Shown piece by piece: positions 21,548 through 36,774 of a DNA stretch of 64,000 bases. The position numbers and the translations under genes were made by a program. Each line of letters starts with the position of its first letter. Position 1 is the first letter of the stretch. The notes beneath the pieces were generated by a model, which ran no database searches, had not been told where the DNA came from, and saw only the letters and a list, made by a program, of their open reading frames with translations. Origin of the DNA: Escherichia coli 042 (lineage in GTDB: Bacteria > Pseudomonadota > Gammaproteobacteria > Enterobacterales > Enterobacteriaceae); the NCBI RefSeq assembly GCF_000027125.1, contig NC_017626.1; one strand, written 5' to 3'.

Positions 21548-24560
<3,013 letters not shown>

Positions 24561-29646: not shown

Positions 29647-30321
29647 ATGCGATATCCGGTTGATGTATACACAGGCAAGATTCAGGCTTATCCCGAAGGC
29701 AAACCCAGCGCAATTGCTAAAATCCAGGTTGATGGTGAGTTGATGCTGACGGAGCTGGGGCTGGAAGGTGACGAGCAGGCGGAGAAGAAGGTTCACGGCG
29801 GGCCAGACAGAGCGCTGTGTCATTATCCTCGTGAGCATTATCTCTACTGGGCGCGGGAATTTCCGGAACAGGCGGAGTTGTTTGTTGCGCCTGCGTTTGG
29901 CGAAAATCTCTCAACCGACGGTCTGACGGAAAGTAATGTTTATATGGGCGATATTTTCCGCTGGGGAGAGGCATTAATTCAGGTCAGCCAGCCACGCTCA
30001 CCTTGCTATAAACTCAATTACCATTTTGATATCAGCGATATAGCGCAGTTGATGCAAAACACAGGTAAAGTGGGGTGGTTGTATAGCGTGATAGCGCCAG
30101 GGTTGGTATCTGCTGATGCGCCGCTGGAGTTGGTTTCCCGTGTCAGTGATGTGACCGTGCAGGAGGCTGCCGCCATCGCATGGCATATGCCGTTTGATGA
30201 CGAGCAGTATCACCGTTTACTCTCCGCCGCCGGGTTATCGAAAAGCTGGACGCGGACGATGCAAAAGCGCCGACTGAGCGGCAAGATCGAAGATTTTTCC
30301 CGCCGGTTGTGGGGAAAATAA
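29647..30321 (+). CDS. yiiM: MOSC-domain protein
   Basis: Internal ATG gives the 224-aa product MRYPVDVYTGKIQAYPEG... Confidence 0.85.
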   Translation: MRYPVDVYTGKIQAYPEGKPSAIAKIQVDGELMLTELGLEGDEQAEKKVHGGPDRALCHYPREHYLYWAREFPEQAELFVAPAFGENLSTDGLTESNVYMGDIFRWGEALIQVSQPRSPCYKLNYHFDISDIAQLMQNTGKVGWLYSVIAPGLVSADAPLELVSRVSDVTVQEAAAIAWHMPFDDEQYHRLLSAAGLSKSWTRTMQKRRLSGKIEDFSRRLWGK

Positions 30322-30331
30322 CCCCCGGAGT

Positions 30332-30399
30332 GTAGGCCTGATAAGACGCTATCAGCGTCGCATCAGGCATCCTGCTCAAATGCCGGATGCGGCGTAAAC
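30332..30399. repeat. REP/BIME cluster, second REP unit interrupted by the IS insertion
   Basis: gtaggcctgataagacgctatcagcgtcgcatcaggc and gccggatgcggcgtaaac; joining the flank at 31832 onward (gccttatcctgcctacaatgcggag) restores a complete REP unit. Confidence 0.65.
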
Positions 30400-30450
30400 T
30401 GAACTGCACCCCAAATGTTGGACATAATCTGACATCTGAAGGTGCAGTTT

Positions 30451-30945
30451 ATGAAACATTCATTTGAAGTAAAACTTGCCGCTGTAAATCATTACCTGGC
30501 TGGTCATGCAGGCATCATTTCTACGGCAAAACTCTTTCAACTTTCTCACACCAGCCTCTCACACTGGATTAATCTTTTTCTTCTTCACGGTCCTCGGGCA
30601 CTGGATTGCAGACACAAGCGTAGCTATTCTCCTGAAGATAAACTTTGCGTGGTTCTTTATGCTCTCGGGCATTCTGAGTCTCTACCCCGGGTAGCTGCCC
30701 GGTTTAACATTCCCAGCCACAACACGGTTAAAAACTGGATAAAAGGCTACCGCAAATCTGGTAATGAGGCCTTTATCAGGCGCAGGAAGGAGAAAAGCAT
30801 GACCCGTTCTGATGATACCCATGAAAACGAGGCAAACATGACGCCGGAAGAGATGAAGAATGAGCTGCGTTATCTTCGCGCAGAAAATGCATATCTGAAA
30901 GCCATGCAGGAGCATCTCCTGGAAAAAAAGCGCCAGGAGCTGGAG

Positions 30946-30972
<27 letters not shown>
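30451..30972 (+). CDS. IS3-family transposase OrfA (HTH DNA-binding / leucine zipper)
   Basis: 173-aa product MKHSFEVKLAAVNHY...; AAGGTG RBS upstream; C-terminal coiled coil. Confidence 0.85.
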
Positions 30973-31831
<859 letters not shown>

Positions 31832-31861
31832 AAACGCCTTATCCTGCCTACAATGCGGAGT

Positions 31862-33235
31862 TTAACTCCGCTTATACAGCGGCAACCAAATCACCAGCCG
31901 TAAACCGCCAAGCGGGCTGTCTTCTGCCTTCACCCAGCCACGATGCTGCTGGATGGCGGTTTCAACAATCGCCAGCCCCAAACCTGTACCGCCAGATTCA
32001 CGATCGCGTGCTTCATCGGTACGATAGAACGGGCGGAAAATCTGCTCGCGATCTTCCGGGCTAACGCCAGGACCATCGTCATCCACCGTAATGGTGATGC
32101 CGTCTTTATCTACCGCGAAGCCTACTTCAATCTTCGTATTGGAATAACGCAGGGCATTACGAACAATGTTTTCCAGCGCACTTTCCAGAGCGTTCGGGTT
32201 GCCATACAGCGGCCACGGCCCAGGCGGGAAGTTAACCGTCAACGACTTGCCCATCTGCTCGGCTTCGAACGCCGCGTTATCCAGCACTTCACTCCACAAC
32301 TGGTTGGCTTTGATGGTCTCACTCACCAGCGCGTTTTTCTGCTGATTACGTGACATCACCAACAGATCGTTGATCATGCTGTCCAGACGTTGCGCTTCGG
32401 TTTCAATACGCTCCAGTTCCTTGCTTTCACCACTACGACGGCGCAGTAACGCCGTACCCAGTTGCAGACGCGTCAGCGGGGTGCGCAGCTCGTGAGAGAT
32501 ATCAGAAAGCAGACGCTGCTGAGAGGTCATCATGCGCTCCAGCGCGGTGACCATCTGGTTAAAACTGGCACCAGCGGCAAGGAATTCCTGTGGCCCCGCT
32601 TCAAGTTCCGGGTGCTGGCGTAAGTTTCCCTGGGCAACTTCATCGGCAGCGTTTTTCAGCTTACGCGCCGGTTTTGCCAGACTCCAGGCCAACCACAACA
32701 GCAGCGGCGTACTGACCAACATGGTGACAATCAGCAGTAATAGCGGGCGGTCAAACAGTAAGTTAATGAAATCGGATTGAGAACTGCTGGCTGGACGAAT
32801 CAGATAAAGTTGGTAATTATCTTCGCCATCACGCACTGAGAACGGACCGACCAGTTCCACGCGGCCATACTTTTTCTTCTGCGGATGATCGGCGTTATCG
32901 GCCTGACCAATAAAGTTACGAATGATCTGCATTTCGCTGCGTTCAGCGCCGATAACGCGGCCTTCGGTGGTCACCAATAACAAACGCTGTCCTGGCGGTG
33001 CCCACTTATCAATCGCCCGGAACAGACGCCGCCACCACATTAAATCGTTGGGCGGATCGTTCGCCAGCTCCGCTTCGACATGCTGCTCAATCATCAGACC
33101 CTGACGCTGTTCGCTATCCAGAAGCTCGGTCATCTGGCGTGAATCGAGCTTGGGTAACATCAAAACTAACATCAACACCAGCGCCAGCGTCAGCCAGAAG
33201 ATGGCGAAGATGCGCGCGGTTAAGCTGCCTATCAT
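31862..33235 (-). CDS. cpxA: Envelope-stress sensor histidine kinase
   Basis: 457-aa product with two TM segments, HAMP, and a histidine kinase core. Confidence 0.95.
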   Translation of the reverse strand: MIGSLTARIFAIFWLTLALVLMLVLMLPKLDSRQMTELLDSEQRQGLMIEQHVEAELANDPPNDLMWWRRLFRAIDKWAPPGQRLLLVTTEGRVIGAERSEMQIIRNFIGQADNADHPQKKKYGRVELVGPFSVRDGEDNYQLYLIRPASSSQSDFINLLFDRPLLLLIVTMLVSTPLLLWLAWSLAKPARKLKNAADEVAQGNLRQHPELEAGPQEFLAAGASFNQMVTALERMMTSQQRLLSDISHELRTPLTRLQLGTALLRRRSGESKELERIETEAQRLDSMINDLLVMSRNQQKNALVSETIKANQLWSEVLDNAAFEAEQMGKSLTVNFPPGPWPLYGNPNALESALENIVRNALRYSNTKIEVGFAVDKDGITITVDDDGPGVSPEDREQIFRPFYRTDEARDRESGGTGLGLAIVETAIQQHRGWVKAEDSPLGGLRLVIWLPLYKRS

Positions 33236-33930
33236 GAAGCAGAAACCATCAGATAGCCGCGACCACGCAAGGTTTTAAACCACGGGTGACCATCTTTACG
33301 ATCCGGCAGTTTACGACGCAGGTTGGAAATGTGCATATCGATAGCGCGGTCGAAAGGCGTCAGCCGTTTGCCCAGCACTTCCTGGCTTAAATGCTCACGG
33401 GAAACCACCTGACCCAGATGCTGTGCCAGCAAATAGAGCAGGGTAAACTCAGTGCCGGTTAGCTCCAGCGTTTGCCCGTCGAAGCTGGCTTCCTGACGGC
33501 CTGGATTCAGCACTAAGGCATCAACTTCCAGTGTCGGTGAACCGTTGTCGTTGTTTTGCTGTTGCTCGCTCCAGTGCGAACGGCGCAGGATCGCGCGAAT
33601 ACGTGCCACCAGCTCACGATCATTAAACGGTTTCGGGAGATAGTCATCTGCGCCCAGCTCAAGGCCGAGAACGCGATCAAGTTCACTGCCGCGCGCCGTC
33701 AACATAATGACAGGCGTCTGGTGTGTCTGGCGAAGTGCTTTTAATGTGTCGATACCATTTTTCTTCGGCATCATTACATCAAGCAAAAGTAAATCAATGC
33801 TGTCGTCCAGAAGATCAAGCGCCTGTTCCCCATCGTGGGCAACAATCACGTTGAAGCCTTCCATCTCGAGCAGCTCCTTTAATAGGGAAGTCAGCTCTCG
33901 GTCATCATCAACTAACAGGATTTTATTCAT
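33232..33930 (-). CDS. cpxR: Envelope-stress response regulator (OmpR family)
   Basis: 232-aa product MNKILLVDDDRELTSLL...; ATGA overlap with cpxA. Confidence 0.95.
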   Translation of the reverse strand: MNKILLVDDDRELTSLLKELLEMEGFNVIVAHDGEQALDLLDDSIDLLLLDVMMPKKNGIDTLKALRQTHQTPVIMLTARGSELDRVLGLELGADDYLPKPFNDRELVARIRAILRRSHWSEQQQNNDNGSPTLEVDALVLNPGRQEASFDGQTLELTGTEFTLLYLLAQHLGQVVSREHLSQEVLGKRLTPFDRAIDMHISNLRRKLPDRKDGHPWFKTLRGRGYLMVSAS

Positions 33931-33984
33931 TGTTTAAATACCTCCGAGGCAGAAATTACGTCATCAGACGTCGCTAATCCATGA

Positions 33985-34000
33985 CTTTACGTTGTTTTAC
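33985..34000 (-). promoter_or_regulatory. CpxR-P binding site in the cpxR/cpxP divergent promoter region
   Basis: Reverse complement reads GTAAAACAACGTAAAG, a perfect GTAAA-N5-GTAAA CpxR consensus. Confidence 0.65.
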
Positions 34001-34079
34001 ACCCCCTGACGCATGTTTGCAGCCTGAATCGTAAACTCTCTATCGTTGAATCGCGACAGAAAGATTTTGGGAGCAAATG

Positions 34080-34580
34080 ATGCGCATAGTTACCGCTGCC
34101 GTCATGGCCTCAACGCTGGCAGTCAGTTCATTAAGCCACGCTGCTGAAGTCGGTTCAGGCGATAACTGGCATCCGGGTGAAGAACTTACGCAGCGCAGTA
34201 CGCAGAGCCATATGTTCGACGGCATAAGTTTAACCGAACATCAGCGTCAGCAGATGCGAGATCTTATGCAACAGGCCCGGCACGAACAGCCTCCTGTTAA
34301 TGTTAGCGAACTGGAGACAATGCATCGCCTTGTCACCGCAGAAAATTTTGATGAAAACGCTGTGCGCGCACAGGCAGAAAAAATGGCGAATGAGCAAATT
34401 GCTCGTCAGGTTGAGATGGCAAAAGTCCGCAACCAAATGTATCGCCTGTTAACGCCGGAGCAGCAAGCGGTTTTAAACGAGAAACATCAACAACGAATGG
34501 AGCAGTTGCGCGACGTGACGCAATGGCAAAAAAGTTCATCGTTGAAGCTATTGAGTAGTAGCAACTCACGTTCCCAGTAG
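34080..34580 (+). CDS. cpxP: Periplasmic Cpx pathway inhibitor/adaptor CpxP
   Basis: Second ATG gives the 166-aa product [17 protein letters not shown]...; contains LTxxQ motifs. Confidence 0.95.
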
Positions 34581-34588
34581 TAAACCCT

Positions 34589-34647
34589 GTTTTCCTTGCC
34601 ATAGACACCATCCCTGTCTTCCCCCACATGATGTGGGGGTTTTTTTT
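34589..34647 (+). ncRNA. cpxQ: Candidate 3'UTR-derived sRNA CpxQ
   Basis: Position corresponds to the cpxP 3' UTR ending at the intrinsic terminator, where CpxQ is known to be generated by RNase E processing in E. coli/Salmonella. The 5' boundary is approximate. Confidence 0.5.
34621..34647 (+). terminator. Rho-independent terminator of cpxP
   Basis: cccccacatgatgtggggg perfect hairpin followed by a run of T residues. Confidence 0.85.
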
Positions 34648-34728
34648 ATCCTCAATTTGCCTGCTGCTTAATGCATTGCAGATGATTTGCTTCCGTTATA
34701 CTAGCGTCAGTTGATAGCGGGAGTATTT

Positions 34729-35631
34729 ATGAATCAATCTTATGGACGGCTGGTCAGTCGGGCGGCGATTGCTGCAACGGCGATGGCTTCACTGCTATTG
34801 CTGATTAAAATTTTTGCATGGTGGTATACCGGGTCGGTGAGTATTCTCGCCGCGCTGGTGGATTCGCTGGTGGATATCGGCGCGTCGTTGACGAATTTAC
34901 TGGTGGTGCGATATTCCCTGCAACCTGCCGACGATAATCACTCGTTTGGTCACGGTAAAGCTGAGTCCCTCGCGGCGCTGGCGCAAAGTATGTTTATCTC
35001 CGGTTCGGCACTATTCCTCTTTTTGACGGGTATTCAACATCTGATATCTCCAACACCGATGACAGATCCAGGCGTCGGGGTTATCGTGACAATTGTGGCG
35101 CTAATTTGTACGATTATCCTTGTCTCGTTTCAGCGGTGGGTGGTGCGCCGGACGCAAAGCCAGGCGGTGCGGGCTGATATGCTACATTACCAGTCTGATG
35201 TTATGATGAACGGCGCAATTCTGCTGGCGCTGGGGTTGTCCTGGTACGGCTGGCATCGCGCCGATGCTCTGTTTGCATTGGGAATCGGCATCTATATTTT
35301 ATATAGCGCGTTACGCATGGGATATGAGGCGGTACAGTCATTACTGGATCGCGCATTACCTGATGAGGAACGGCAAGAAATTATTGATATCGTGACTTCC
35401 TGGCCGGGTGTTAGCGGCGCTCACGATCTTCGCACGCGGCAGTCAGGGCCGACCCGCTTTATTCAGATTCATTTGGAAATGGAAGACTCTCTGCCTTTGG
35501 TTCAGGCACATATGGTGGCGGATCAGGTAGAGCAGGCTATTTTACGGCGTTTTCCGGGATCGGATGTGATTATCCATCAGGACCCCTGTTCCGTCGTACC
35601 CAGGGAGGGTAAACGGTCTATGCTTTCATAA
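34729..35631 (+). CDS. fieF: Cation-diffusion-facilitator Fe/Zn efflux transporter
   Basis: Internal ATG gives the 300-aa product [20 protein letters not shown]... Confidence 0.9.
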
Positions 35632-35811
35632 TCAGTATAAAAGAGAGCCAGACCCGCATTTTGTGTATAAAATACCGCCATTTGGCCTGACCTGAATCAA
35701 TTCAGCAGGAAGTGATTGCTATACTATTTGCACATTCGTTGGATCACTTCGATGTGCAAGAAGACTTCCGGCAACAGATTTCATTTTGCATTCCAAAGTT
35801 CAGAGGTAGTC

Positions 35812-36774
35812 ATGATTAAGAAAATCGGTGTGTTGACAAGCGGCGGTGATGCGCCAGGCATGAACGCCGCAATTCGCGGGGTTGTTCGTTCTGCGCTGAC
35901 AGAAGGTCTGGAAGTAATGGGCATTTATGACGGCTATCTGGGTCTGTATGAAGACCGTATGGTACAGCTAGACCGTTACAGCGTTTCTGACATGATCAAC
36001 CGTGGTGGTACGTTCCTCGGTTCTGCGCGTTTCCCGGAATTCCGCGACGAGAACATCCGCGCCGTGGCTATCGAAAACCTGAAAAAACGTGGTATCGACG
36101 CGCTGGTGGTTATCGGCGGTGACGGTTCCTACATGGGTGCAATGCGTCTGACCGAAATGGGCTTCCCGTGCATCGGTCTGCCGGGCACTATCGACAACGA
36201 CATCAAAGGCACTGACTACACTATCGGTTTCTTCACTGCGCTGAGCACCGTTGTAGAAGCGATCGACCGTCTGCGTGACACCTCTTCTTCTCACCAGCGT
36301 ATTTCCGTGGTGGAAGTGATGGGCCGTTATTGTGGCGATCTGACCCTGGCTGCGGCCATTGCCGGTGGCTGTGAATTCGTTGTAGTTCCGGAAGTTGAAT
36401 TCAGCCGTGAAGACCTGGTAAACGAAATCAAAGCGGGTATCGCGAAAGGTAAAAAACACGCGATCGTGGCGATTACCGAACATATGTGTGATGTTGACGA
36501 ACTGGCGCATTTCATCGAGAAAGAAACCGGTCGTGAAACCCGCGCAACTGTGCTGGGCCACATCCAGCGCGGTGGTTCTCCGGTGCCTTACGACCGTATT
36601 CTGGCTTCCCGTATGGGCGCTTACGCTATCGATCTGCTGCTGGCAGGTTACGGCGGTCGTTGCGTAGGTATCCAGAACGAACAGCTGGTTCACCACGACA
36701 TCATCGACGCTATCGAAAACATGAAGCGTCCGTTCAAAGGCGACTGGCTGGACTGCGCGAAAAAACTGTATTAA
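35812..36774 (+). CDS. pfkA: 6-phosphofructokinase I
   Basis: 320-aa product [23 protein letters not shown]...; the track ORF start at 35716 is an upstream extension. Confidence 0.97.

Follow-up and report, generated by a model that had tools for sequence, protein, structure and literature searches.

The sole perfect CpxR recognition sequence in the 64-kb stretch of Escherichia coli DNA analysed here (the window) lies between the divergently transcribed cpxRA and cpxP genes and is the published K-12 CpxR operator, an already known and ordinary site. We regard it as almost certain that this element, box 1 (Table 1), is the canonical high-affinity operator through which phosphorylated CpxR acts on the divergent cpxRA and cpxP genes, with its K-12 sequence unchanged. 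The minus strand at 33985-34000 reads GTAAAACAACGTAAAG and the plus strand CTTTACGTTGTTTTAC, which are reverse complements, exactly as an earlier note made from the letters alone had read it. The note's description of a textbook GTAAA-N5-GTAAA is equally accurate, with perfect direct-repeat pentamers at 5-nt spacing at 33986-34000 of the minus strand. It also placed the site correctly between the divergent cpxRA and cpxP starts: positions 33931-34079 are exactly the 149-bp intergenic gap, bounded by the cpxR ATG at 33930 on the minus strand and by the annotated cpxP ATG at 34080 on the plus strand, with an in-frame ATG also at 34077.

What does identity with K-12 amount to at this locus? Window coordinate x equals NC_000913.3 coordinate x + 4071740, and a comparison spanning the whole gap found the intergenic region identical to that of MG1655 at 169 of 169 bp (100%). 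Of 5426 complete E. coli genomes, 5423 carry the 601 bp around the gap with at least 99% identity. Two sites at this locus are tabulated in PMC9600279 Table S1 and attributed there to De Wulf et al. 2002: cpxR/cpxP1, given as GTAAAACAACGTAAA, and cpxR/cpxP2, given as GCAAACATGCGTCAG. In the window the first of these is box 1, at the same position, and the second falls at 34006-34020 on the minus strand (box 2). Because the tabulated cpxR/cpxP1 is the very site that had been noted, the mapped K-12 position and the box 1 position are one and the same, as far as that table records it. The Cpx autoregulatory and cpxP control region is thus the reference one, and because it is unchanged, knowledge gained in K-12, including cpxP reporters and PcpxP biosensor parts, transfers directly.

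Table 1. Features of the cpxRA/cpxP region, in window coordinates
Feature	Position	Strand	Evidence or remark
IS1397 (IS3 family), 1432 bp	30400-31831	+	in REP loop between yiiM and cpxA; context, not operator
cpxA, sensor kinase, 457 aa	31862-33235	-	HisKA + HATPase_c + CpxA_peri (Pfam); H366N vs K-12
cpxR, OmpR/PhoB-family response regulator, 232 aa	33232-33930	-	Response_reg + Trans_reg_C (Pfam); identical to K-12
CpxR box 1 (GTAAA-ACAAC-GTAAA), high-affinity consensus site	33986-34000	-	sequence, uniqueness, matrix score, MG1655 identity, site listing
Middle register (GTCAG-GGGGT-GTAAA)	33996-34010	-	9.2 bits, second-best in the gap; links boxes 1 and 2
CpxR box 2 (GCAAA-CATGC-GTCAG), weak, in phase with box 1	34006-34020	-	listed as cpxR/cpxP2; 8.7 bits; conservation
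Interval equivalent to ChIP-exo peak_10	34017-34063		-28 to +19 of cpxP; offset 4071740
GTAAACT, with candidate -10 hexamer TAAACT (34032-34037, -13 to -8)	34031-34037	+	conservation
cpxP transcription start (G), 35-nt leader	34045 (MG1655 4105785)	+	promoter part sequences, published statements
cpxP, periplasmic LTXXQ-family modulator, 166 aa	34080-34580	+	LTXXQ (Pfam); identical to K-12
cpxQ-equivalent region, small RNA from cpxP 3' UTR	34590-34647	+	MG1655 annotation, alignment

An exact scan of both strands of the 64-kb window for GTAAANNNNNGTAAA returned a single match, at 33986-34000 on the minus strand. Dinucleotide-preserving shuffles (100 in number) gave a mean of 0.07 matches, with at least one match per 64 kb in 7 of the 100, and by our own arithmetic the chance of a match inside the 149-bp gap is approximately 0.07 x 149/64000, or about 2e-4. 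A graded view comes from a weight matrix for which 39 published CpxR sites were used, these being the 41 sites of PMC9600279 Table S1 with both cpx sites excluded. Scanned with this matrix, box 1 reaches 19.4 bits out of a maximum of 19.5, ranks first among approximately 128,000 window positions with a lead of 4.7 bits over the runner-up (14.7 bits), and outscores all 39 sites from which the matrix was built. The runner-up matches, at 9167-9181 (+), 55328-55342 (+), 60568-60582 (-) and 24474-24488 (-), score 13.7-14.7 bits, which is the range of several published CpxR sites.

Box 1 is one part of a larger arrangement. With a uniform background, the three top matrix matches in the gap are overlapping registers of one minus-strand array: box 1 at 19.0 bits, followed by the middle register and box 2 with the scores given in Table 1. 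Read from 34020 down to 33986, the array consists of four pentamers, GCAAA, GTCAG, GTAAA and GTAAA, exactly 10 bp apart. The earlier note had presented box 1 as the CpxR site of this promoter region; the box is a real site, and it is accompanied by other CpxR elements, namely box 2 and a third site reported in the literature. To set these elements against the cpxP promoter a start site is needed. The biosensor part PcpxP, CTTTACGTTG...CTCTATC, corresponds to window 33985-34044 (PMC9753035 supplement), and PcpxP(+5) is the same part plus GTTGA, the five bases directly downstream of the start site (PMC9753035). Since PcpxP ends at 34044 and PcpxP(+5) adds GTTGA, we place +1 at 34045, a position that agrees with the report that the cpxP start site falls within 44 bp of native 5' sequence (PMC4817254). 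Relative to this start, box 1 spans -59 to -45, centred at -52, and box 2 spans -39 to -25, where it occupies the cpxP -35 position. Box 1 lies 55 nt from the cpxR ATG and is oriented forward for cpxR.

A scan of the gap for consensus sigma-70 promoters found none, and a -35 hexamer is absent, which we read as activator dependence and not as the absence of a promoter. PMC9753035, citing Yamamoto and Ishihama 2006, describes PcpxP as a sigma-70 promoter and assigns it three CpxR-P sites, of which one runs five nucleotides past the start site. TAAACT is a candidate cpxP -10 hexamer, as its conservation suggests, and it overlaps an inverted GTAAA half-site at -14 to -10. The enclosing GTAAACT may be part of the reported third CpxR-P site reaching +5; our weight matrix gave no support for a third site near +5, where scores are 0.4 bits or less. 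The plus-strand GTAAA at 34031-34035 was also considered as an independent CpxR site and rejected, as it scores -1.3 bits and is more likely to belong to the -10 hexamer. A 9-nt inverted repeat, GACTTTACG at 33983-33991 and CGTAAACTC at 34030-34038, is complementary at 8 of 9 positions; one arm falls on the outer half of box 1 and the other on the GTAAA overlapping the putative -10 of cpxP. On the cpxR side of box 1, in the cpxR leader or promoter region, there is a direct repeat of the same 5-N5-5 form, ACGTC-ATCAG-ACGTC, at 33958-33972.

How might such an array control two divergent genes? CpxR~P, a winged-helix protein of the OmpR/PhoB family, binds as a head-to-tail dimer with one monomer per GTAAA pentamer, the pentamers lying one helical turn apart and box 1 forming the outer pair of the four-pentamer array. 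The array would then cover about -59 to -25 of cpxP, with box 2 replacing the missing -35 hexamer, and CpxR~P would recruit sigma-70 RNA polymerase to cpxP in the manner of PhoB, a polymerase contact that we propose by analogy. With box 2 in place of the missing -35, CpxR~P would be required for recruitment of the sigma-70 polymerase, and such a requirement would leave cpxP silent without CpxR and make it the most strongly induced target. The literature agrees with the strong cpxP induction that had been predicted from the box: cpxP is the strongest Cpx-induced promoter (PMC4817254), and a cpxP::lacZ fusion shows no measurable activity when CpxR is missing (PMC2731931). How strongly a gene is regulated is poorly predicted by a CpxR box on its own, according to PMC2731931 citing Price and Raivio. 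In the other direction box 1, upstream of the cpxR ATG and forward for cpxRA, would mediate positive autoregulation; the predicted cpxR start lies some 16-18 nt before the ATG, where the centre of box 1 would fall near -45. Inhibition of CpxA by CpxP closes a negative feedback loop.

The array was followed across species by a DNA-pattern scan, with one genome per species, for the CpxR N-terminal peptide VDDDRELTSLLKELLEMEGF, which located 120 Enterobacterales loci; the 112 with enough upstream sequence were kept for analysis. In 110 of these 112 other Enterobacterales loci, a perfect GTAAA-N5-GTAAA oriented as here precedes the cpxR ATG by 52-55 nt. Nine spacers were found among the loci (ACTAC, AGAAC, ACAAC, AGTAC, ACTAA, GCTAA, GCTGA, ATAAC and TCTAG), a pattern that points to purifying selection on the pentamers and not on the spacer. 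This provides independent comparative support for a site that had been biochemically defined in just two species. For position-wise conservation, 104 distinct sequences were anchored on box 1, and the invariance of the box 1 pentamers within this set is accordingly a product of the anchoring. In the same 104 sequences the pentamer positions of box 2 are 83-100% conserved, so that the weak box is conserved together with the strong one; the TA.ACT positions show conservation of 0.87, 0.87, 0.29, 0.88, 0.63 and 0.92, and positions 34024-34030 are merely 44-51% conserved. In the direct repeat at 33958-33972, only the copy nearer cpxR has been kept in other species (acGta.TTT when the consensus is read in the cpxR sense). 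As the repeat is only partly conserved, ACGTC-N5-ACGTC was set aside as a candidate site for a second regulator.

A perfect box is missing only from Candidatus Doolittlea endobia and from a Sodalis sp. metagenome-assembled genome, and as both are insect endosymbionts, the loss suggests relaxed selection on Cpx autoregulation. Upstream of cpxR the Sodalis box has decayed to GTAAGGCTACGTAAG and the Doolittlea box is unrecognisable. The four-pentamer array may decay solely in such genome-reduced insect endosymbionts.

Is box 1 the element that matters most at cpxP in vivo? An alternative is that the promoter-proximal sites, that is box 2 and the site overlapping -10 to +5, dominate there and that box 1 is an accessory affinity anchor. 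The sole in vivo peak at the locus, CpxR ChIP-exo peak_10 (MG1655 in 5% ethanol, 4105757-4105803), lends itself to such an interpretation: its equivalent interval spans -28 to +19 and takes in the core promoter and start of cpxP. It is displaced from box 1 by 17 bp in the direction of cpxP, and so lies beside box 1 and overlaps just the inner pentamer edge of box 2; the peak does not in itself place CpxR on box 1. The position of box 2 at -35 and the inverted GTAAA at -14 to -10 fit a dominant proximal role as well. Against it, ChIP-exo boundaries often take in cross-linked polymerase; peak_10 may reflect either box 2 plus the reported third site or cross-linked polymerase. The third site reaching +5 is itself a point in favour of proximal dominance, as far as it is described in PMC9753035. 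Matrix score and conservation argue the opposite, since box 1 scores 19.0 bits compared with 8.7 for box 2 and at most 0.4 near the start site, and box 1 is the most strictly conserved element. We consider dominance of the proximal sites unlikely, and it is in any case compatible with a central role for box 1, because a strong distal site that nucleates the cooperative filling of weak proximal sites is the usual OmpR/PhoB logic.

A second alternative is that box 1 serves cpxP alone and is not a shared bidirectional operator, with cpxRA autoregulation proceeding through another element or indirectly. Several observations lean this way: the Kim 2012 and SMRT-Cappable-seq supplements list nothing for the locus, and hence no start site for cpxR, the ChIP-exo peak falls towards cpxP, and the conserved blocks on the cpxR side, TgGA.T and acGta.TTT, could form a constitutive promoter. 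Evidence on the other side comes from Yersinia pseudotuberculosis, in which the homologous box, approximately 55 nt upstream of cpxR, has been DNase-footprinted as gtcagggcatgtaaagctga, a footprint that includes the homologous GTCAG and GTAAA (PMC3158067). CpxR~P binding there is documented by gel shift as well as by the footprint, and scrambling the Yersinia box reduced it (PMC3158067). With the box scrambled in a cpxA* background, the promoter was reported, as data not shown, to express cpxR poorly and to relieve the toxicity of CpxR~P (PMC3158067). This scrambling result is the best available support for autoregulation, and on that basis the autoregulation expected from the position of the box is supported. 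The forward orientation of box 1 with respect to cpxR, the 52-55 nt distance kept between the box and the cpxR ATG across Enterobacterales, and the classing of both cpxR and cpxA as direct CpxR targets by combined ChIP-exo and RNA-seq likewise favour a shared operator, and we judge a box devoted to cpxP alone to be very improbable. That box 1 is a chance A/T-rich decamer without function deserves practically no credence and has already been refuted: perfect matches arise somewhere in a few of the shuffled windows and the window holds 72 matches with two mismatches, but the site sits in the one relevant 149-bp gap, is identical to the published and listed K-12 site, keeps its pentamers unchanged around differing spacers in 110 of 112 species, and has a footprinted counterpart in Yersinia (PMC3158067).

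The reading frames of CpxR, CpxA and CpxP are all intact, and the cognate regulator is encoded alongside its site. Gene identities rest on the RefSeq annotation of matching E. coli genomes, on Pfam domains and on amino-acid identity to K-12. The CpxA H366N replacement (codon 366, window 32138-32140) is seen relative to both K-12 and strain SK1144 and immediately follows the N-box in the ATPase domain; an identical 61-nt stretch is present in 171 complete E. coli genomes, which marks the replacement as a lineage variant. In the cpxQ region the only departure from K-12 is a C-to-A difference at 34631, within the hairpin loop of the cpxP/cpxQ terminator. An Rfam scan of 30000-36000 returned no matches, for cpxQ or otherwise.

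The insertion sequence that the earlier note had seen near the locus is IS1397, with its end 30 bp downstream of the cpxA stop codon. Its orfA (30442-30972) and orfB (31077-31799), both on the plus strand and carrying the Pfam domains HTH_28 and rve, are convergent with cpxA, pointing towards its 3' end, and 27 of 40 bases match between the terminal inverted repeats. The insertion junction reads GCGGCGTAAAC, then the IS, then AAACGCC, which places the element within the loop of a REP palindromic unit and splits the REP element. Insertion into REP loops is a known habit of IS1397. An IS1397 next to cpxA is rare: among 5426 complete E. coli genomes there are only 4 such cases, in which the junction is longer by about 46 bases. 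Disruption of the cpx genes by IS1397 is ruled out, as the element sits between genes and leaves cpxA at full length. The claim that the box shows the Cpx locus to be regulatorily intact despite the insertion holds for the promoter and the coding sequences, which are intact; "shows" is too strong a word, as undisturbed regulation is here predicted from sequence, and the claim of regulatory intactness as a whole is reasonable but overstated.

Two further ideas can be offered together as a speculative pair, unlikely when taken jointly. In place of the single textbook box, the conserved unit could be the whole four-pentamer array, held throughout Enterobacterales at a fixed distance to cpxR and to the cpxP -10, and, separately, IS1397 could affect where the cpxRA mRNA ends or how stable it is, or give rise to antisense transcription. 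If true, both would be modest extensions of known biology.

The control region can be compared with three known systems. With the K-12 cpxRA/cpxP boxes it shares everything at the operator, as neither the two listed boxes nor the start site nor the ends of the promoter parts differ; K-12 differs in the context, since here there are IS1397, the CpxA H366N replacement and one changed base in the cpxQ terminator loop. The Y. pseudotuberculosis box is likewise a GTAAA-N5-GTAAA, oriented as here and with a GTCAG in front, and it too stands some 55 nt upstream of cpxR, whereas the spacer at the loci of Y. pestis and Y. similis is GCTGA and here is ACAAC. More distantly, the arrangement is reminiscent of the pho boxes of PhoB and the tandem sites of OmpR, which are also direct repeats, recurring every 10-11 bp and occupied head-to-tail. 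By this analogy the likeness would extend to the use of a promoter-proximal site in place of a missing -35 hexamer and to the pairing of a strong distal with a weak proximal site. Unlike in those systems, the recognition sequence is that of CpxR, and the cpx repeats point away from cpxP and towards cpxR.
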